DNA from: Corallococcus caeni
GTDB taxonomy: Bacteria > Myxococcota > Myxococcia > Myxococcales > Myxococcaceae
Assembly: GCF_036245865.1 (NCBI RefSeq)
Contig: NZ_BTTW01000008.1
Span: 1 to 32,395 of the forward strand
Direction of reading: 5' to 3'
DNA length: 32,395 nt
The position numbers and the translations under genes are program-made. Under the pieces are notes generated by a model that did not search any database, had not been told where the DNA came from, and saw only the letters and a list, made by a program, of their open reading frames with translations. Below, one piece after another: positions 2,920-32,372 of this stretch (positions within the stretch are counted from its first letter, which is position 1; each line of letters opens with the position of its first letter).

Positions 2920-3025
2920 TCGCGGGTGTCAGGACGGGCAGGGAAGGGTGCGCTCCCTGACGGGGAGCGTCAGTCCCGTCGCCCGTAGAACATCAGCCCG
3001 ATAGAAAGTGCTGGATCTTTGCGAA

Positions 3026-3053
3026 AGCCGGGGGTATAGGCCCCCGGCTTTTG
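3026..3053 (+). terminator. rplJ leader attenuator: intrinsic terminator-like hairpin inside the 397-nt L10 leader
   Basis: AGCCGGGGG-tatagg-CCCCCGGCT (9-bp GC stem) is followed directly by TTTTGC. In enterobacteria this hairpin+T-tract position within the rplJ leader is an attenuator. Confidence 0.5.
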
Positions 3054-8842: not shown

Positions 8843-13054
<4,212 letters not shown>

Positions 13055-13063
13055 TCATTCCCC

Positions 13064-13133
13064 GAAGCGTCCCTGACGCTTCGTGAGTCAGCCGCCGTCC
13101 TGGTGTCATGCCGGGGCGGCGGCTTTCTTGTTT
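13064..13133 (+). terminator. Intrinsic terminator after rpoC (two hairpins, the second with a U-tract)
   Basis: GAAGCGTC-cct-GACGCTTC (13064-13082). Then AGCCGCCG (13090-13097) / CGGCGGCT (13117-13124) followed by TTCTTGTTTCGC. Confidence 0.65.
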
Positions 13134-21477: not shown

Positions 21478-23763
21478 ATGAGCATGCAGGGTGGCGCCGG
21501 AGAAGATCCCGACCGGGGGCGGCGCATCGGAAAGTACGAGATCCTCACCCGCCTTTCGATGGGAGGGATGGCGGAGCTGTTCCTCGCGTTCACCTCCGGC
21601 CCCGGTGGCTTCCGCAAGTTCGTGGCGGTGAAGCAGATCCTCCCCGACATCAAGAAGGACGACCAGTTCGTCAAGATGTTCCTGGACGAGGCGCGCATCA
21701 CCGCGGCCTTCTCGCACGCGAACATCGGACAGGTTTTCGACCTGGGGGAGGAGGACGGCGAGCTGTACCTCGCCATGGAGTTCCTGCCCGGCCAGAACCT
21801 GGAGCAGGTGGTGAAGATGGCGGAGCGGCGCAAGTACGCGCTGCCGCTGGGCTTCTGCGCGCGCGTCATCCGCGACACGTGCCTGGGCCTGCACTACGCC
21901 CACCACTTCATGGATCCGTCGGGCCGCCCCGTGGCGGTGGTGCACCGCGACGTGTCGCCGAAGAACGTGATGCTCACCTACGACGGCGTCGTGAAGGTGA
22001 TCGACTTCGGCATCGCCAAGGCGCGCGGCAAGCTGGGCCGCACCCAGGTCGGCACCGTGAAGGGGACCAGCGGCTACATGTCCCCGGAGCAGGTGCGCAA
22101 CAAGGACCTGGATGGCCGCAGCGACCAGTTCTCCACGGGCGTGATGTTCCACGAACTGCTGGCCGGTCAGCGCCTGTTCAACGCGCCGGGCGAGGCGGCC
22201 GTGATGATGCAGATCGTGGACGGGGAGATCCCCGCGCCGCGCTCGCTCAACCCGGCCGTGCCGGAGGCCCTGGAAGCGGTGGTGCTCAAGGCGCTGTCGC
22301 GCGACGCGGCCCAGCGCTTCGGCACCTGCCGGGAGATGGCGCGCGCCATCGAGGCCACGCTGGGCGCCGAGCTGTTCGACGAAGACCAGCTGACCGCCGT
22401 CATGGGCGAGCTCTTCGAGGAGAAGCGCCAGAAGACGCGCACCCTCCTGGAGCTGGCCAGCCGCGCCGAGGACGCCCGCGTCAGCGAGGCCGCCGGCGCG
22501 CTCCAGGCGGAGGAGGGCACGGATCAAGCCGCCTCCGCGGCCACCGCGCAGGTGAAGTCGCCGCACGCGGAAGCCCCGCAGCCGGACGTCGCCGCGTCCT
22601 TCAAGCCCACGCCCGTCCGCCGCGCCGCGGCCGAGTCCGCGACGCCCGCACCGCGCGCGACCCCGCGCTCCACCGCGGAAGCCCCAGAGGCCCGCGCCTC
22701 CCGCGTCAACACGCCGGCCGTGACTCCGCGAGCCCAACGGCCCGCGGGTTCGGACGCGGCGCCCATTCCCCGGGTCATCCGTCCTCCCGCGGACGCCGTG
22801 CGGCCCTCCAGGGCACGCCCCACCGCGCGGCCCGAACCCGCCGAAGCCCGGAGCGCGCCCCCGGCGGACTCGCTGATGGACCCGCCCAGCGATCTCCAGA
22901 CGCAGCGCTTCCGGACGCGTCCGGCGCGGGGCACCGCACGTCCGTCCCGCCAGGCGGAGGAGGAGGTGGCCGAAGCGCCTCCCTCGGCCACGCCTGCCCG
23001 CGAGGGCTCCGGCTGGGGCATGCGGCTGCTGCTGCTGCTCATCCTGGGGGGCGTGGGCTACCTGGCGACGCTCGAACCCGTGCGCCGCGTGTTCATGCCC
23101 GCGTACGACTCCGCGAAGCAGTGGGTGAAGGCGGAGCTGGATCCGGCCCCGCCCGTGGACCCCGCCGCGAGCGGGCAGTGGCCGCCGAAGCCCTCCGGTC
23201 CTCCGCCGGGCTTCGCGCAGAAGACCGAAACCCCGGCGCCCGAGAAGTCGCCGGAGGTGGAGCCGACTCCGCCCGAGCCCGTGGTGGAGGCGACGCCCGC
23301 CGACACGAAGAAGACGCCCGCGGGGAAGGGGGGCCGCAAGACGAAGCCGGCCCCCAGCGCTCCGGCCGCCACTCCCACCACGCCCGTGGTGGCGGCGACG
23401 GCCGAGCCGCGCCCCGCGAAGCCCGAGCCGTCGGAGCGGGCCCCGGAGCCCGTCACCACCGTCACGCAGGCCGAGAACCCGGAGGTGCTGGACACCTCCA
23501 CCTCGAAGGGCGCGGCGAAGGCGGGCCTGGGGTGGCTGACGCTTTACACGGTGCCAAAGAACGCGGCGGTGTTCGACGGCGCCACGCAGCTGGGCACGTC
23601 CCCGCTGATCAAGTTCCCCCTGCCCATCGGGACGTACCGGCTGCGCGTGGTGGACCCGCAGGACCCCGGCGGAACGAGCAAGCTGTTGTCCGCTCCCATT
23701 CGTCCGGGCGAGGTGACGAAGCTGCAGATTCGACTGGTCGACCTCCCGGCCTACGCGGACTGA
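21478..23763 (+). CDS. Ser/Thr protein kinase with a Pro/Ala-rich linker, single TM helix and C-terminal PEGA domain
   Basis: Hanks motifs GKYEILTRLSMGGMAELF (Gly loop), VAVK, HRDVSPKNVML, DFGIAK, GTSGYMSPE. TM helix is GWGMRLLLLLILGGVGYLATL (~23019-23080). PEGA-like C-terminus is GWLTLYTVPKNAAVFDGATQLGTSPLIKFPLPIGTYRLRV. Confidence 0.9.
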   Translation: MSMQGGAGEDPDRGRRIGKYEILTRLSMGGMAELFLAFTSGPGGFRKFVAVKQILPDIKKDDQFVKMFLDEARITAAFSHANIGQVFDLGEEDGELYLAMEFLPGQNLEQVVKMAERRKYALPLGFCARVIRDTCLGLHYAHHFMDPSGRPVAVVHRDVSPKNVMLTYDGVVKVIDFGIAKARGKLGRTQVGTVKGTSGYMSPEQVRNKDLDGRSDQFSTGVMFHELLAGQRLFNAPGEAAVMMQIVDGEIPAPRSLNPAVPEALEAVVLKALSRDAAQRFGTCREMARAIEATLGAELFDEDQLTAVMGELFEEKRQKTRTLLELASRAEDARVSEAAGALQAEEGTDQAASAATAQVKSPHAEAPQPDVAASFKPTPVRRAAAESATPAPRATPRSTAEAPEARASRVNTPAVTPRAQRPAGSDAAPIPRVIRPPADAVRPSRARPTARPEPAEARSAPPADSLMDPPSDLQTQRFRTRPARGTARPSRQAEEEVAEAPPSATPAREGSGWGMRLLLLLILGGVGYLATLEPVRRVFMPAYDSAKQWVKAELDPAPPVDPAASGQWPPKPSGPPPGFAQKTETPAPEKSPEVEPTPPEPVVEATPADTKKTPAGKGGRKTKPAPSAPAATPTTPVVAATAEPRPAKPEPSERAPEPVTTVTQAENPEVLDTSTSKGAAKAGLGWLTLYTVPKNAAVFDGATQLGTSPLIKFPLPIGTYRLRVVDPQDPGGTSKLLSAPIRPGEVTKLQIRLVDLPAYAD

Positions 23764-24845: not shown

Positions 24846-26946
24846 TCTGCTGCTGGAGGTCGGCGCCGAGGAGATCCCGGCGTCGTTCATCGTGCCCGCG
24901 CTGGAGGACCTGAAGCGCGTGCTCACCGAGCGCATGGCCGACGCCCGCCTGAAGCACGGCGAGGTGCGCACGTTCGGAACGCCGCGCCGGCTGGCCATCT
25001 GGGTCCGCGACGTGGCGGACGCGGGAGAGGACATCACGAAGGAGGTGCTGGGGCCCAGCGCCAAGGCCGCCTTCGACGCGCAGGGCAAGCCCACCAAGGC
25101 GGCGGAGAAGTTCGCCGAGGGGCTCAAGCTGACCGTGGACGCGCTCGGCCGCACGACGACGGCCAAGGGCGAGTACGTGTCGGCGCGCGTGGAGGAGAAG
25201 GGACGCCCGGCGGACGCCATCCTCCAGGATGCGCTGCACGCCGCGGTGCACGGCATCAACTTCAAGAAGTCCATGCGCTGGGGGGACGTGGACACGTCCT
25301 TCGCGCGCCCGGTGCAGTGGCTGGTGGCGCTGCTGGGTGACACGGAGCTGGCGGTGGTGCTCGGCGACGTGAAGAGCGGACGGACGACCTACGGCCACCG
25401 CTTCCTCGCGCCGGGGCCCATCCCGCTGAAGGCGCCCGCGGACTACGAGTCCACGCTGGAGAAGGCGCACGTGCTGGCGGACCTCGGCAAGCGCCGCGCG
25501 TCGCTCGTGGAGAAGCTGCACGCCGCGGCGAAGGGCGCCGGCGGGCAGCTCATGGAGGACGAGGGACTGGTGGACCAGGTGACGAACCTGGTGGAGCTGC
25601 CGAACCCCGTGGTGGGCAGCTTCGACCCGCGCCACCTGGACCTGCCGCCGGAGGTGCTGGTGCAGGAGATGAAGAGCCACCAGCGCTACTTCTCGCTGCT
25701 GGACGCGCAGGGGAAGCTGCTGCCGCGCTTCATCGCCGTGTCCAACACGCCGGTGCGCGACGCGCAGCTGTCCCTGCGTGGGTACGAGCGCGTGCTGCGC
25801 GCGCGGCTCGCGGACGGGCGCTTCTTCTTCGACGAGGACCGCCGCACGCCGCTGGCCGACCGCGTGGAGAAGCTGGGCCGCGTGGTGTGGCAGGGCCAGC
25901 TGGGCACGTACCTGGAGAAGGTGGAGCGCTTCCGTGCGCTGGCGGGCTTCCTGGCCCAGGCCACGGGCAGGGCAGGGGAGGCGGCCACGGTGGAGCGCGC
26001 CGCCACGCTGTCCAAGGCGGACCTCGTCACCGGCATGGTGGGCGAGTTCCCGGAGCTCCAGGGCGTGATGGGCCGCGAGTACGCGAAGGCGGGCGGCGAG
26101 CCCGACGCGGTGGCGCTGGCCATCTTCGAGCACTACCTGCCCCGCGGCGCCGAGGACGCGCTGCCGTCGCAGGACGCGGGCGCGCTCATCGGCCTGGCGG
26201 ACCGGCTGGACTCGCTGTGCGGCATCTTCGCCATTGGCAAGGCGCCGTCGGGCGCGGCGGATCCGTTCGCGCTGCGCCGCGCGTGCCTGTCCATCATCCG
26301 CATCGTGCTGGGGCGCGGCTACCGCTTCAGCCTTTCGGCCGCGGTAGACGAGGCGCTGCGCCTCCTGGCCCCGAAGCTGGCGAACGTGAAGCGCAAGCCG
26401 GGCGAGGCGGCCCCGCGTGAGCAGGTGCTGGAGTTCTTCCGCGGCCGCCTCAAGGCGCTGTGGGGCGAGCAGCACCGCACGGACGTCGTGGAGGCCGTGC
26501 TGGCCGTGGGCTTCGACGACCTCGTCGCGGCGAAGAAGCGCCTGGAGGCCCTGAGCCTGCTCGTGGGCCACTCGGACTTCCAGCCGCTGGCGGCGGCGTT
26601 CAAGCGCGTGGTCAACATCGTGGAGAAGCAGGGCAAGGACGTGGCGGGCGGGCAGACCAACCCGCAGCGCTTCACGGACGAGCCGGAGAAGAACCTCCAC
26701 ACCGCCTTCACCCAGGCCCGCGACAAGGTGGGCGAGCGCGTGCGCGCGGACGACTTCGCCGGGGCGCTCAAGGAGATCACCGGCCTGAAGCCCGCCGTGG
26801 ACACCTTCTTCGACAAGGTGATGGTGATGGCCGAGGACAAGGACCTGCGGGAGAACCGCATCCGGTTCCTCACGGAGATTGGCGCCCTGTTCAACCAGGT
26901 GGCGGACTTTTCCAAGATCCAGGCCGAAACCGCTGCGGCGGCCTGA
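24835..26946 (+). CDS. glyS: Glycine--tRNA ligase beta subunit
   Basis: GTG start overlaps the glyQ 3' end by 11 nt. (M)[29 protein letters not shown]... is the GlyS N-terminus. 703 aa. Confidence 0.95.
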
Positions 26947-27115
26947 GGCCCGGTCGCCCGTTCACCGCTGGCGCGTGCCCGCTTTCCCGCCAGGGGAGCG
27001 GCGCACGCCGTCCGTGCGGGGGGGAGGGATGTCGGGAGGAGGGCGGCCGGGAATAGTGACAGCCCTATTCAGTTGCCCGGCGCAGGGCGTCGTTCCTACA
27101 CTCCGCCCCCCTCTG

Positions 27116-28645
27116 ATGCGCCTCCATTTCCTGACCCCCGCGCTGCTGCTCCTCGGAGCGTGTTCGCTCGAATCCGATCCGAACCCGCCTCCATCCACCC
27201 GCTTCGTGTACCCCAGCGGGGTGGCGTTCTGGCGCCCTCCGACGGCGGGAGGGCCCTCGGCGAGCAACGGCTATCTCTTCGTCGCGAACGCCAACTTCGA
27301 CAACTGCTACGACTCCGGTTCGGTCGTGGCACTGAACCTGGACGCACTGAGCACGCAGGTGGACGGGCAGCCGGTGACGGTGCCCCACCTGGGCAGTGTG
27401 CTCCCGGAGTCCGCGCTCGCCTTCGAGGACCTGGCGTCCGCGGACGAGTCGCTCGTGCAGATCCGCAGCTTCGCGGGTGAGCTGGGCCTGTGGGTGAACC
27501 CGGCCAGCGGGCTGCCGCGCCTGTTCGTGCCGTCGCGCGCGGAGGGCAACGACCTGCACGCGGTGGACGTGAGCCTGGATGGCAACGGCGCGCCGGTGCT
27601 CAACTGCGTGCAGGGCGGCGTGGACTGCCGCGACGGCGCGCTGTCGCTCACCGACGACATCCCGGCGTCCTTGAGCGAGGCGGGCCGGCCGGGCCTGCCC
27701 CGTGCCCCGTCGCCCATCGGCGTGACGGTGGATGCGGCGAGCGGCACGCTGTACGTGACGCACTCCGAGGCGGCGGACTCGCCCGCGAAGTCCAGCACCA
27801 ACTTCGAGAACTACCTGGCCACGGTGAAGCTGGACAACCCCACGCGCGACACGCTGGGCTTCATCCCGCTGTCGCCCGACGGCTACCTCTACGGCGGCTC
27901 GGACTCCGTGACGGTGGGCGCAGGCTACCTCTACGTGACGGGCCGCAACTTCGTGGCCGGCATCAACGGCACGGTGGCCGCCAACTTCGTGCTGCGGCTG
28001 GTGGACAAGAACGAGCCCGGCATCATCCTGGAGCCCGCACTGCAGTCGGTCTTCAGCATCCGCGAGGCGCGCGCGGCGCGCGTGGTGCCCCGGCCGGTGA
28101 CGGCGGCGGAGCGGGCGGCGCGTCCGAACTTCGTGCGCGAGCGGCTCTACATGCTGGCGCGCGGCCCGGACACGCTGCTCACCCTCGACTTCGAATACGA
28201 CGCGGTGCCGGGCACCGCCGCCACCCAGCCCTTCTTCCGCGTGGTCTCCGCGGTGCCCCTGCCGGACGGCGTGAGCGACATGCAGCTCATCGAGCGGACG
28301 CCGGGCACGTCCAACGCGGACACCAACATCCTCGCGGTGACGAGCACGGGCGACAGCGCGGTGTCCCTCTACGACGAGGCGCTCGGGCAGGTCGTGGCGC
28401 AGGTGCCGCTCGTCAACAACCTCAACCAGACCAGCAACCCGTCGCAGGCCTTCGGGCTCGCGGTGGACAACCCGGCCGGGACGAACGCGGCGCGGCTGTT
28501 CGTGACCAACTTCGGTGACGGACAGGTGTCCATCGTGGACATCCCCGACCTCGCGCGCCCCCAGGACGCGAGGCTGGTGGCGAGGCTGGGCACGCAGCAA
28601 CAGCGCGATCCGAACCAGGGCACCAGCGTGTGCCAGGAGAACTGA
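27116..28645 (+). CDS. YVTN-family beta-propeller lipoprotein
   Basis: MRLHFLTPALLLLGA|CSLES carries a lipobox. Repeated YVTN-type beta-propeller blades: YLFVANANFDN...GSVVALNL, RLFVPSRAEGNDLHAVDVS, TLYVTHSEA, YLYVTGRNF, ARLFVTNFGDGQVSIVDI. The track start at 26879 is rejected. Confidence 0.75.
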   Translation: MRLHFLTPALLLLGACSLESDPNPPPSTRFVYPSGVAFWRPPTAGGPSASNGYLFVANANFDNCYDSGSVVALNLDALSTQVDGQPVTVPHLGSVLPESALAFEDLASADESLVQIRSFAGELGLWVNPASGLPRLFVPSRAEGNDLHAVDVSLDGNGAPVLNCVQGGVDCRDGALSLTDDIPASLSEAGRPGLPRAPSPIGVTVDAASGTLYVTHSEAADSPAKSSTNFENYLATVKLDNPTRDTLGFIPLSPDGYLYGGSDSVTVGAGYLYVTGRNFVAGINGTVAANFVLRLVDKNEPGIILEPALQSVFSIREARAARVVPRPVTAAERAARPNFVRERLYMLARGPDTLLTLDFEYDAVPGTAATQPFFRVVSAVPLPDGVSDMQLIERTPGTSNADTNILAVTSTGDSAVSLYDEALGQVVAQVPLVNNLNQTSNPSQAFGLAVDNPAGTNAARLFVTNFGDGQVSIVDIPDLARPQDARLVARLGTQQQRDPNQGTSVCQEN

Positions 28646-28647
28646 CC

Positions 28648-30801
28648 TTGAAGCGCGGCTTTCTTGCGGCCCTGTTGCTGAGCGGCGCGAGCCTCGCGCT
28701 CGCCTGCTCCGACACCACCTCCACCGCGGGCGCCGCCGGCCTGTCCGGCACGTACGACGTGGTGCTCTCCAACCAGCTCGTCTTCGTCACCTCCCAGGAC
28801 CGGGATGAGCTGCGCGTGCTGGACCTGACGCGCTCGCCGCGTGAGTTCCTCCCCGCGCCCAACCCGCTGGAGCCCCTGTCCATCCCCGTCATCGCGCGGC
28901 CCGACTCGCTCACCCGCGACGTGGGCTACGACGCCACCGGCAACGACGTGTCCGGGCCGTACATCTACGCGCGCAGCTCCGGTGGCCGCGGCATCTCCGT
29001 GGTGGCCGCGGACCGCGCGCGCCTCAACGAGGTGACGCGCCTGGCGACCGGCCAGCTCATCACCGCCTTCGCCGCGCATGCCCCGGTGGCGGACGGCGCG
29101 CCGAGCGTCCTGTACTACGCGCTCCAGACGCGCCCGGCGGCCGCCGAGCAGCTCTGCGGCCCCTTCGGCGGCGGCGTGGTGATGCGCCAGGACCTGCCCG
29201 GCCCGGAGGGCTTCGACGCGGCCGCGCTGCCGCCCGCGCTGCCCGTGTTCTGCCTCAAGCCGGCGGACACCGTGCTGTCCATGATCACGCTGCCCGCGCG
29301 GGCCAACGTGACGGACTCGCTGGTGCTCGCCATCCGCAACGTGTCCGGCACCAGCCGGCTGGTGCGCGCCGCCGCGGACGGGGCCTCCGTGGAGATTCCG
29401 TACAAGCGGCCGCGTCCGGTCCCCTACGCGGTGCCCACGTACACGGACCTCATCGACATCCCGGCGCGGCTCGTGGCCACGCACGCCAGCTTCAAGGTGT
29501 CGGACACGGTGACCGTGCCCGCGGGCCGCTTCGTGTACGTGGTGCTGGATGAGCTGACGTGCAACTCGTCGGACTGCGAGGGCGTCATCGCGCTCGACAA
29601 CGGGCCGGATCCCCTGGCGCCCTCCACGGCGCCGGCGCTCGCCCGGGACATCACCGGCGCGCCCATGCTGACCCTGAAGCCGTCCGCGGGCCTGCCCACG
29701 GGCCTCACGCTGCGCACGGGCCTGGAGGTCCGCGAGCTGCTGTCGGACGGCGTGGCCTACACCACCCCCGTGCCGCTGCTGGGCATCGTGCCGTCCTCCA
29801 GCGGGGAGATCACCCTGTTCCGCGCGGACGAGCGGCGCGCGTTCAACCTGGACCGCGACCCCAAGACGGGCCCGCTGAAGGCGTCCGTGTCCGCGGAGCT
29901 TCGCGACAGCAACGAGGCCGTGCGCGCGGATCAGTTCCAGGCCATCACCGTGTCGGAACCGGGCTGCCCCCAGGTGCAGGACGCGACCAACGCCACCGCG
30001 TTCCTCTGCAGCGGGACGGTGCCCAACGGCACCTACCGCTTCGTCTTCCAGGGCGCGCTGCCTGGCCTGACCAGCCTCACGCGCGACCTGACCGTGGAGG
30101 ATGCTCCGATCCTCATCGAGACCACCCTGGCGACGTCGCGAGGCGTGGTGCCCGGGGACTCCATCGTGCTGGCGAACAACGCGGGCGCCTGCGCGACGGC
30201 CATCCCCATCCTCCGCCTGGAGGACCAGGGCAACGGCCTCACGCGGCTCTACCCGGACCTGTCCGACCCGGCCATCGCCACCGCGGTGGAGCCCTGCGCC
30301 TCGTACCCGCTCTTCTCCGTGCGGGCCGGTCCGAACGTGAAGCCCTACCTGCTCTATGCCGGCGCGGAGAGCAGCGGTTCTTTCATCCAGCGGCTGGATG
30401 TGAACGAGCCGTACACCGTCTCCAGCTTCCTGGACTACTACGCCCACCCGGACGACTTCGACCTGGGGTTGGACCCGCCCAAGTCACCCACCACCTACGT
30501 GCCCGCGCCGCTGACGCTCACCATGACCGCGACCATCGGTGCGCAGAGCCGACTGGTGGCCGGTGACCGCTACGTGGTGACGCTGCTGCCGCGCTTCCGC
30601 CGCTTCGTCTTCGGGGTGGACACCGGCTCGTCGAGCAACCTGGCGGTCTACACCCTGCCTGCTTCCGTGGTGGCCACGGACGTGGAGGGCTCCAGCCTGG
30701 CCTTCATCGCCTACCCCTCCGCGGACGGCATCCTCCAGGTGGCCCTGGAGTCCATCAGCGACAACGCGAAGAACCTCCAGTATCTCCGGGCCTTCCAGTA
30801 A
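28648..30801 (+). CDS. Large lipoprotein of unknown function (717 aa), coupled to the upstream beta-propeller lipoprotein
   Basis: TTG start 8 nt after AGGAGA and 2 nt after the upstream stop gives MKRGFLAALLLSGASLALA|CSDTT, a textbook lipoprotein signal. The in-frame GTG at 28630 is the alternative. One N-terminal YVTN-like blade (QLVFVTSQDRDELRVLDL). The rest is unassigned. Multiple Cys pairs. Confidence 0.7.
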   Translation: MKRGFLAALLLSGASLALACSDTTSTAGAAGLSGTYDVVLSNQLVFVTSQDRDELRVLDLTRSPREFLPAPNPLEPLSIPVIARPDSLTRDVGYDATGNDVSGPYIYARSSGGRGISVVAADRARLNEVTRLATGQLITAFAAHAPVADGAPSVLYYALQTRPAAAEQLCGPFGGGVVMRQDLPGPEGFDAAALPPALPVFCLKPADTVLSMITLPARANVTDSLVLAIRNVSGTSRLVRAAADGASVEIPYKRPRPVPYAVPTYTDLIDIPARLVATHASFKVSDTVTVPAGRFVYVVLDELTCNSSDCEGVIALDNGPDPLAPSTAPALARDITGAPMLTLKPSAGLPTGLTLRTGLEVRELLSDGVAYTTPVPLLGIVPSSSGEITLFRADERRAFNLDRDPKTGPLKASVSAELRDSNEAVRADQFQAITVSEPGCPQVQDATNATAFLCSGTVPNGTYRFVFQGALPGLTSLTRDLTVEDAPILIETTLATSRGVVPGDSIVLANNAGACATAIPILRLEDQGNGLTRLYPDLSDPAIATAVEPCASYPLFSVRAGPNVKPYLLYAGAESSGSFIQRLDVNEPYTVSSFLDYYAHPDDFDLGLDPPKSPTTYVPAPLTLTMTATIGAQSRLVAGDRYVVTLLPRFRRFVFGVDTGSSSNLAVYTLPASVVATDVEGSSLAFIAYPSADGILQVALESISDNAKNLQYLRAFQ

Positions 30802-30864: not shown

Positions 30865-31722
30865 ATGATCGATCAGAACTCCCGTCCCGCACGCAAGGTC
30901 GGCATCGCCGAGCACCTGTGGGAGACGTACGAAGAGATGGCCCAGCAGATGGGGTCGGATCGCGACGCGCTCATCAACCAGGCGCTGTTCATGTTCGCGC
31001 GTCTCAACGGCTTCATCGACGTGAAGACGAAGGGAGAGCCCGCGGTGGCGGCGGTGCCGTCACCGGCGCCTTCCGCGCGCGCGGCCTCCGCGCCCCCCCC
31101 GGCCGCCGCGGCCAAGGGCGCGCCGCCGGTGCTGGCGCCCGCGCCGGCGTCGTCGCGCCCCGCCGCGCGCAACGGGGCGGAGGAGCGTCCTTCCTCCAAC
31201 GGACTGGACAATGATCCGGTGCGCCGCGAGGTCGCCGAGCGCGTCCTGGAGACGGCCGCGGAGCTGGAGCGGCTCATCAAGGGCAAGAACGAGCCGCCCC
31301 CGCCCTCCGCGGACGACATGATCGAGGACGAGGAGGAGCCCCTGCCGGAGCAGGAGGAGCCGCCGCTCGACGACATGCAGGACGAGCCTCCGGAAGAGGC
31401 CGAAGAAGAAGAGGCCATGGAGGAGCCGGACGAGGAGGAGGGCGCCGCGCTCTACCTCGTCACGGAGTCCGGCGAGCAGGAGAAGATCGTCAAGGACCGC
31501 TACGTCATCGGCCGCGGCAAGCACTGCGACTTCGTCATCAACTCCGGCAAGGTGTCGCGCGAGCACGCCGTCATCGCCCGCGACGGCGGCGACTTCTACA
31601 TCGAGGACCTCGGCTCCTCGAACGGGACCTGGTTCAACAAGCAGCGCATCAAGCGCCGCAAGGTTGAGGACGGGGACGAGTACTTCATCTGCAGCGAGAA
31701 GATCCGCCTCGTCATCCATTGA
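30865..31722 (+). CDS. Ribbon-helix-helix + FHA-domain protein with a poly-acidic linker
   Basis: N-terminus RKVGIAEHLWETYEEMAQQMGSDRDALINQALFMFARL has the RHH (CopG/Arc) pattern. Ala/Pro-rich spacer. Acidic run is DDMIEDEEEPLPEQEEPPLDDMQDEPPEEAEEEEAMEEPDEEEG. C-terminal FHA is YVIGRGKHCDFVINSGKVSREHAVIARDGGDFYIEDLGSSNGTWFNKQRI. Confidence 0.8.
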   Translation: MIDQNSRPARKVGIAEHLWETYEEMAQQMGSDRDALINQALFMFARLNGFIDVKTKGEPAVAAVPSPAPSARAASAPPPAAAAKGAPPVLAPAPASSRPAARNGAEERPSSNGLDNDPVRREVAERVLETAAELERLIKGKNEPPPPSADDMIEDEEEPLPEQEEPPLDDMQDEPPEEAEEEEAMEEPDEEEGAALYLVTESGEQEKIVKDRYVIGRGKHCDFVINSGKVSREHAVIARDGGDFYIEDLGSSNGTWFNKQRIKRRKVEDGDEYFICSEKIRLVIH

Positions 31723-31808
31723 GGAACGGGATGACGCAGGGCCCCACGGTGCGATGGTCTTGTTCAGGAATTGACGGGCTCCAGGCCTCCATTGTTTGAT
31801 GGGGGTCG

Positions 31809-31829
31809 CCTGCTCCCCATGGGAGCAGG
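31809..31829 (+). promoter_or_regulatory. Perfect 9-bp palindrome CCTGCTCCC-cat-GGGAGCAGG covering the SD of the prepilin-peptidase gene
   Basis: Exact reverse-complement arms read from the sequence. GGGAG inside the 3' arm is the only SD-like element before the ATG at 31836. A candidate TTGACG-N18-TTTGAT promoter lies at 31771-31800. Confidence 0.4.
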
Positions 31830-31835
31830 TGCCGA

Positions 31836-32372
31836 ATGACACCTGTTCAGCTCGCGCTGTGGACGATTCTGGGAGTGGCCCTGGTGATTGCGGTGGTGAC
31901 CGACGTGCTGCGCCGGCTCATCCCGAACGCCGTGACCTATCCGCTCATCGTGCTGGGGCTCGGGGTGCGCGCGGTGTCCGAGGGGTGGGGCGGGCTGGAG
32001 TCGGGGCTGGTGAGCGGGCTTCTGGCGGGCGCGGGACTCGCGCTGCTGCTGGTGCCGGGTGCGCTGCGCGGGCGCATGGGGTGGGGTGACGTCAAGCTGA
32101 TGGCGGGCGTGGGCTGCGTGCTGGGCTTTCCCACGGTGCTCGCGGCGGCGGCCTTCATCTCGCTGGTGGGCGCGCTGCAGGCAGTCGTCACACTGCTGTG
32201 GCAGGGGGCTGTCTGGGACACGCTGGCGGCGGTGGCCCGTCGCTGGGCGGTGCGGATGAAATTCATGCGCGAGGCAACCTCGCCCGCTCCCGTGCGACAC
32301 ATCCCCTACGGCGTCTCCATCGCGCTCGGGACTTTCTGGGCCATGTGGTGGCAGCAACAACATCTGGGATAG
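31836..32372 (+). CDS. cpaA: A24-family prepilin peptidase, CpaA/TadV-like (Flp/Tad-type pilus)
   Basis: 178 aa polytopic membrane protein. The two catalytic Asp contexts are VIAVVTDVLRRLIPN and RMGWGDVKLMAGVG. The short size fits TadV/CpaA rather than PilD. Confidence 0.75.
   Translation: MTPVQLALWTILGVALVIAVVTDVLRRLIPNAVTYPLIVLGLGVRAVSEGWGGLESGLVSGLLAGAGLALLLVPGALRGRMGWGDVKLMAGVGCVLGFPTVLAAAAFISLVGALQAVVTLLWQGAVWDTLAAVARRWAVRMKFMREATSPAPVRHIPYGVSIALGTFWAMWWQQQHLG

Follow-up and report, generated by a model that had tools for sequence, protein, structure and literature searches.

The gap of 113 nt between an FHA-domain gene and a prepilin-peptidase gene of Corallococcus caeni carries a perfect palindrome directly in front of the peptidase start codon, raising the question of whether it acts as an RNA hairpin that governs translation, as a DNA operator, in some other way, or not at all. 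We analysed the first 32,395 nucleotides of contig NZ_BTTW01000008.1 (hereafter the window) together with related loci, which are designated by L numbers. The product of the peptidase gene, which carries a Peptidase_A24 domain, is 93-98% identical to Corallococcus proteins. The FHA gene lies upstream of it, and in a 98%-identical locus (L001) a secretin gene (PF00263) follows 51 nt after the peptidase gene, succeeded in turn by a gene for an FHA-T2SSE ATPase. Since this gene order matches that of Kil cluster 1, i.e. MXAN_3102 (unknown), MXAN_3103 (unknown), MXAN_3104 (FHA), MXAN_3105 (kilA), MXAN_3106 (kilC) and MXAN_3107 (kilF) (PMC8460266, supplementary file 1), the peptidase gene is the kilA orthologue. 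Kil cluster 1 encodes a Tad-like apparatus for contact-dependent prey killing (PMC8460266), in which the Tip2-4 minor-pilin complexes are the only ones that KilA matures (PMC12075869). MXAN_3105-3107 are reported to be up-regulated together in co-culture with prey (PMC10196010), and kilA is puzzlingly weakly expressed, its deletion having only subtle effects (PMC8460266, PMC12075869); as this low expression is an RNA-seq measure, it says nothing on a translational effect.

The surroundings of kilA in the window show some further features. The window ends 23 nt after kilA, and in nine draft Corallococcus/Myxococcus assemblies (L024, L027, L028, L040, L042, L043, L045, L046 and L079) contigs of ~8.8-9.0 kb end inside kilA, at residues 52-92, equivalent to positions 31960-32090 of the window; the stretch looks very GC-rich by eye, and assembly dropout is a possible cause. 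Two large ORFs at 26879-28645 and 28630-30801, which overlap by 16 nt, are the MXAN_3102 and MXAN_3103 orthologues; they gave no Pfam match and both have lipobox-like N-termini (LLLLGACS and ALACSD), and the first of them probably starts near 27116 instead of at the listed TTG. A gene for a Ser/Thr protein kinase (21478-23763) is located ~3 kb upstream of the Kil cluster-1 genes, with glyQ and glyS in between, and as the cluster contains many FHA proteins this kinase could be a signalling partner. Finally, two other perfect inverted repeats, one at 3025-3050 (AAGCCGGGGG..CCCCCGGCTT, then TTT) and one at 13063-13083 (CGAAGCGTC..GACGCTTCG, 9 nt past a 1403-aa ORF at 8843-13054), look like ordinary terminators.

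Table 1. Features of the kilA upstream region, with positions in the window
Feature	Position	Strand	Details
Upstream gene, MXAN_3104 orthologue	30865..31722	+	weakly RHH-like N-terminus, acidic low-complexity linker, C-terminal FHA domain
-35-like box TTGACG	31771..31776	+	TTGAC[GT] in 39/39 orthologous regions; putative promoter element
-10-like hexamer TTTGAT	31795..31800	+	18 nt 3' of the -35-like box
Leader stem-loop	31807..31831	+	31807-31817 paired with 31821-31831, loop CAT 31818-31820; basis: sequence, folds, covariation, arm swap, G·U bias
Shine-Dalgarno-like purine run in the 3' arm	31821..31831	+	GGGAG 31821-31825, AGGTG 31827-31831; sequence
kilA orthologue (MXAN_3105), A24 prepilin peptidase of the Kil Tad-like system	31836..32372	+	ATG at 31836; Pfam PF01478, E = 8.1e-16

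The sequence confirms the exact inverted repeat of the original prediction, with arms of 9 bp, CCTGCTCCC (31809-31817) and GGGAGCAGG (31821-31829), that flank the 3-nt spacer CAT (31818-31820) and thus form a palindrome of 21 bp in total. As RNA the stem gains the pairs G31808·U31830 and C31807-G31831, giving 11 pairs, one of them G·U, and a fold of 31790-31850 yielded -26.8 kcal/mol (z = -2.6). GGGAG, in contrast, is not the sole Shine-Dalgarno (SD)-like element as originally claimed, since AGGTG is present, too, and, being only 4 nt away from the ATG, is the better-placed anti-SD match; it is part of the extended stem. The window contains no second copy of the palindrome, and a search of the element for Rfam families, riboswitches included, gave no match even at E <= 10. 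The loop contains an ATG that opens an ORF of 6 codons (MGAGAE, window 31819-31839), the TGA of which overlaps the kilA ATG as ATGA; as most other genera have no ATG in the loop, we take this ORF to be probably incidental.

Counted over the whole window there are nine perfect inverted repeats of at least 9 bp with a spacer of at most 8 nt (nested matches included, corresponding to seven distinct sites) as compared to 3.5 ± 2.3 in dinucleotide shuffles of the window, and the chance expectation for such a repeat in the 113-nt gap is roughly 0.01. Judged by the within-window count the palindrome exceeds chance only weakly, and the sequence alone proves little. The case for a function of the hairpin derives from the conservation of the pairing in orthologues and not from the palindrome in the window.

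We fetched 80 genomic loci encoding relatives of the peptidase and read their upstream regions, resulting in 39 distinct sequences from Corallococcus, Myxococcus, Pyxidicoccus, Citreicoccus, Hyalangium, Archangium, Cystobacter, Vitiosangium and related MAGs. Few bases of the intergenic region are as conserved in these 39 sequences as those of the two promoter-like boxes. The spacer that follows the ubiquitous TTGAC[GT] is 18 nt long in 37/39, the hexamer reads TTTGAT, TTTAGT or TTTATT in likewise 37 of the 39, with T being nearly invariant across genera at three of its positions, and 35 sequences have a TG at the extended -10 position, which is replaced by TTG in the four Corallococcus sequences, including the window. 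The TTGACG-N18-TTTGAT element had been described as promoter-like, and indeed both boxes are there and widely conserved, whereas a strict sigma-70 consensus promoter scan did not call TTGACG-N18-TTTGAT, because the -10-like hexamer has no A at position 2. We infer that TTGAC-N18-TTTGAT acts as a promoter.

Conservation also reaches 5' of the -35-like box (31762-31776 in the window, GTTCAGGAATTGACG), where GTT is nearly invariant and CAATTG is a small palindrome in most genera (GTTCGCCAATTGAC); this stretch could be an activator or UP-like site. In a Myxococcus locus (L012, 3902-3922) a terminator-like hairpin with a T-rich tail is located between the FHA stop codon and the -35-like box, which fits kilA beginning a separate transcription unit; scanning of L035 did not recover it. 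A second inverted repeat surrounds the -10-like box (GGCCTCCATT/GATGGGGGTC in the window, CAGGCGTCC/GGACGCCTG in Myxococcus), and as the Myxococcus copy overlaps the 5' arm of the hairpin, an alternative pairing, i.e. an anti-sequestor, suggested itself. We rejected this candidate, also as a conserved riboswitch domain upstream of the hairpin: the pairing register of the repeat differs between genera, and in the Myxococcus register the 39 sequences showed no double changes and did not exceed shuffles.

A stem-loop is found at the same place across all 39 distinct orthologous regions, and while its arm sequences change, the pairing is kept. The arms are 5' CCTGCTCC and 3' GGAGCAGG in the window (Corallococcus), CCTGTCC and GGACAGG in Citreicoccus (L013), CCTGGCC and GGCCAGG in Hyalangium, ATCCGCCTC and GGGGCGGAT in Archangium gephyra, and GCCTCCTCC and GGGGGAGGC in Cystobacter, and the inner distance between them ranges from 6 to 15 nt among the orthologues. 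Each orthologue folds independently into a hairpin, with a median of -17.7 kcal/mol and a median z of -3.0. The position of the helix is restricted on both sides: it starts 5-8 nt 3' of the -10-like hexamer in 39/39 sequences (6-7 nt in 35/39), and in 35/39 its end leaves 4-5 nt up to the ATG so that the stem covers the SD window. In the Cystobacter-type loci L005, L048 and L083 the stem stops 12 nt short of the ATG, and SD occlusion may be weaker there.

The covariance model that we built from these leaders (see below) matches the kilA leader alone in each locus. Another 8 leaders came from a metagenome scan, mostly out of lineages that were represented already, and the one new leader type (L083) has its own stem, the fold of which does not rise above shuffles (z = -0.4). 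In more distant Myxococcota the gap between the FHA and the peptidase gene is 5-40 nt and contains neither the promoter boxes nor the hairpin; the promoter-plus-hairpin module is therefore a clade-specific insertion, i.e. a gain. A few intermediate loci (L052, L066) have the boxes and, by eye, a long-range pairing of unrelated sequence between the start of the leader and the region preceding the start codon.

Three statistics were used to ask if the pairing is selected. In an alignment of 22 sequences made with MAFFT only, which is blind to the structure, 89.5% of the cells are paired as compared to at most 44.5% with slid partners, and 3 pairs are changed on both sides. On this MAFFT alignment of 22 we built a covariance model and used it to realign all 39 sequences, resulting in 91.5% paired cells (at most 48% with slid partners), changes on both sides in 8 of the 9 pairs (45 cells), and a covariation score that was reached by none of 500 shuffles; the fitting of this alignment to the structure by the model and the kinship of the sequences both inflate the pair statistics. 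Because the 39-sequence alignment leans towards the structure we added an alignment-free arm-swap test in which the 5'-most 14 nt of every predicted leader were hybridised with the final 17 nt of all leaders. For arms combined with their own partner the mean was -18.4 kcal/mol versus -14.3 ± 0.66 kcal/mol when partners were permuted among the 22 arm types, the observed value being reached in 0 of 20000 permutations. Due to the relatedness of the sequences none of the three pairing statistics is a true probability, but all three agree in direction. Most genera share the same sequence, CCUG/CAGG, at the foot of the stem, and this part of the pairing therefore gives no covariation signal. Across the myxobacterial genera compared here, what is conserved in the stem-loop is its structure and not its sequence.

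For the window hairpin a stability of -22.4 kcal/mol was predicted at 32 °C, and by the same prediction the stem on its own should still be folded at 95 °C. The predicted cost of opening the region from the SD to the AUG (31825-31838) is ~17 kcal/mol at 32 °C, alike for a transcript that starts at 31807 and for one that reads through out of the FHA gene, and the predicted probability of this region being unpaired is 5.7e-13 to 3.3e-12 at the same temperature. Pairing with the 3' end of 16S rRNA could return roughly -11 kcal/mol, less than the predicted opening cost, and because of this deficit the likeliest role of the hairpin is to damp KilA translation strongly. We placed +1 at the 7th nt after the hexamer, which is the usual distance and an assumption here; the first paired base then corresponds to +1 to +3 in 38/39 sequences, and the predicted leader of the window, about 29 nt long, is essentially one hairpin. 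The literature searched contained no transcription start site (TSS) for the kilA locus, and the supplements of PMC8844925 and PMC5857379 hold no TSS or expression data for MXAN_3104-3107. The start is predicted from the spacing to the -10-like hexamer alone, and a start inside the 5' arm would shorten the stem.

We consider it likely, albeit far from certain, that the RNA stem-loop constitutes almost the whole 5' leader of kilA, hides the ribosome site and sets KilA translation very low. The conserved TTGAC-N18-TTTGAT element would act as the promoter, with transcription starting at the base of the hairpin and producing a kilA mRNA that probably extends over kilA-kilC-kilF. The hairpin would form on transcription and bury the AGGUG/GGGAG ribosome-binding site so that KilA, the catalytic enzyme, would be made at a very low set level, whereas kilC would be translated independently from its own SD-like GAAGGGG, which is found about 9 nt before the kilC ATG. 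At the extreme 5' end of the transcript the same hairpin could, in addition, guard it from 5'-end-dependent decay. Little KilA is thus probably made as long as the hairpin is in place. If the first cistron is nearly silent, Rho-dependent polarity could affect kilC and kilF further along the transcript, and since both are needed for killing, such polarity would fit poorly with simple permanent repression.

The original prediction had offered two readings of the palindrome, each taken to imply tight control of the peptidase, an RNA hairpin and a dimeric DNA operator, for example for the protein encoded immediately upstream, which was thought to combine an RHH and an FHA domain. The FHA domain of this protein is clear (Pfam PF00498, E = 1.2e-19), whereas the RHH N-terminus has weak, sub-threshold matches only. 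No RHH family was among the Pfam matches to the upstream protein, which contained a single weak match to DUF4167, and the best PDB sequence match of the N-terminus was CopG with E = 0.2. A single-sequence structure model of the N-terminus shows an extended segment followed by two helices (mean pLDDT 78.6), and a Foldseek search with this model put CopG, CdbA and Arc on top, all matches having E >= 1. The N-terminal 50 residues thus look RHH-like at sub-threshold scores only. In the window and in every Myxococcota locus examined, L050-L078 included, the FHA gene directly precedes the peptidase gene.

Palindromic operators, too, would give co-varying arms, and covariation alone therefore cannot settle the choice between RNA and DNA. 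An operator centred at about +12 would allow a dimeric repressor, such as the RHH-like FHA protein, to block RNA polymerase in the manner of lacO; this would agree with the window repeat being perfect, 21 bp long and just 3' of the -10-like box, with the weak RHH-likeness of the upstream protein (CopG at E = 0.2; CopG, CdbA and Arc heading the Foldseek list), and with the FHA gene adjoining the peptidase gene in all related loci whose upstream sequence was read. However, the inner distance of 6-15 nt, a range of 9 nt, shifts the half-sites by nearly a full helical turn, rotating and separating them too far for one conserved dimer, and the arms differ between genera (22 different 5'-arm types) while the upstream protein is conserved, its RHH assignment moreover not being significant (no RHH Pfam family, all Foldseek E >= 1). 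Non-Watson-Crick cells of the helix are asymmetric between the strands, with 25 G·U versus 5 A·C, four of the latter at the outermost pair, a bias that recognition of duplex DNA would not produce and that is expected for an RNA read from the + strand rather than duplex DNA or a minus-strand RNA. These observations disfavour the operator, which we regard as very unlikely, and together with the covariation and the fixed position of the 3' arm they support the stable RNA hairpin that occludes the ribosome-binding site. That the palindrome might have arisen by chance in GC-rich intergenic DNA and be functionless has in its favour that shuffling of the window yields ~3.5 perfect 9-bp inverted repeats on average, but the pairing survives sequence change across genera at a fixed position, and the alignment-free arm swap argues against an alignment artefact, leaving this explanation with a next to negligible probability.

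If the element is an RNA hairpin, hiding the ribosome site need not be its main task. It could mainly be a 5'-terminal stabiliser of the kilACF transcript that blocks the entry route of RppH/RNase E or of RNase J, the cover of the ribosome site then being a side effect of a leader of ~29 nt. Protection by a 5'-terminal stem-loop is established for the ompA-type leader of E. coli, and the first helix base, 5-8 nt after the hexamer in 39/39 sequences, is at or a few nt from the predicted +1; counted from the -10-like hexamer, the helix starts with the 6th-9th nt, and a stabiliser is expected to leave ~0-4 unpaired nt at the 5' end. A pure stabiliser would, however, not require an SD-covering geometry, yet the distance between stem and ATG (4-5 nt in 35/39) is kept as tightly as the distance to the promoter, and the sole purine-rich SD-like run is always in the 3' arm, leaving no space for a separate exposed SD. 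We thus think it unlikely, though worth bearing in mind, that stabilisation is the main function, and as stabilising the transcript and damping its translation are compatible, the hairpin may do both. The GC-rich stem could also serve as an intrinsic terminator or attenuator that insulates kilACF from upstream read-through or prematurely stops transcripts from its own promoter, and some Archangium-type orthologues (L006, L029, L030, L037) have UUUU after the stem and an A-run before it. Against this, there is no U-tract in the window, where the tail is UGCCGAAUGA (TGCCGAATGA), or in most genera, a terminator scan makes no call on the hairpin, the hairpin follows the conserved promoter boxes and ends 4-5 nt short of the start codon, and Myxococcus has its separate terminator-like hairpin upstream of the -35-like box, making termination a highly improbable function. 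The hairpin might also be a regulated switch, opened by a trans-acting factor that is produced or activated on prey contact or starvation and thereby raises KilA; the opener might be an RNA helicase, a small RNA that pairs with the CCUGC 5' arm, or one of the FHA/kinase signalling proteins whose genes surround the cluster. We consider such a switch doubtful, and to our knowledge no regulator, ligand or upstream translation is known to open the kilA leader hairpin.

The preferred reading, a leader hairpin that damps KilA translation, assigns the element to a well-known type of control. De Smit and van Duin reportedly analysed translational repression by local mRNA structure in the case of the MS2 coat gene. 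As in SD-sequestering leader hairpins of this kind, a stable local stem holds the SD just 5' of the start codon, the predicted opening cost is far above what SD:anti-SD pairing returns, the SD is in the stem at functional spacing, and the pairing is kept through compensatory change; unlike in MS2-type structures, the kilA hairpin is essentially the whole leader, starting from the predicted +1. In E. coli, a stem at the extreme 5' end, as in the ompA-type leader, protects the mRNA from 5'-end-dependent decay. The kilA stem resembles it in starting only a few nt from where the 5' end is predicted, but the ribosome site of ompA is single-stranded and 3' of the hairpin, whereas that of kilA is inside it. 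With lac-type operators the window shares a perfect palindrome of 21 bp centred ~12 bp after the predicted start, but at kilA the half-sites vary among orthologues in both spacing and sequence, and their mismatches are asymmetric between the strands. RNA thermometers such as ROSE and FourU likewise occlude the SD by a hairpin in the 5' UTR, but their stems are weak and imperfect and melt at 30-42 °C, whereas the kilA stem is perfect and GC-rich; with an opening cost of ~17 kcal/mol at 32 °C and a stem predicted to be folded at 95 °C we rejected a thermometer. We found no earlier description of the kilA leader element in Rfam or in the literature searched. The kilA leader hairpin is a clade-specific example of this control type that is undescribed at kilA, and the class of mechanism is ordinary.

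Myxococcus kills prey on contact by means of the Kil Tad-like pilus, for which KilA serves as the dedicated prepilin peptidase. A conserved hairpin and a putative internal promoter in front of kilA-kilC-kilF provide a concrete cis-element for how kilA stays low, and the element marks the probable start of transcription of the core kil genes in cluster 1. Should the regulated switch prove true, the cell could change the composition of the killing-pilus tip at the level of translation, as KilA matures only the Tip2-4 complexes (PMC12075869).
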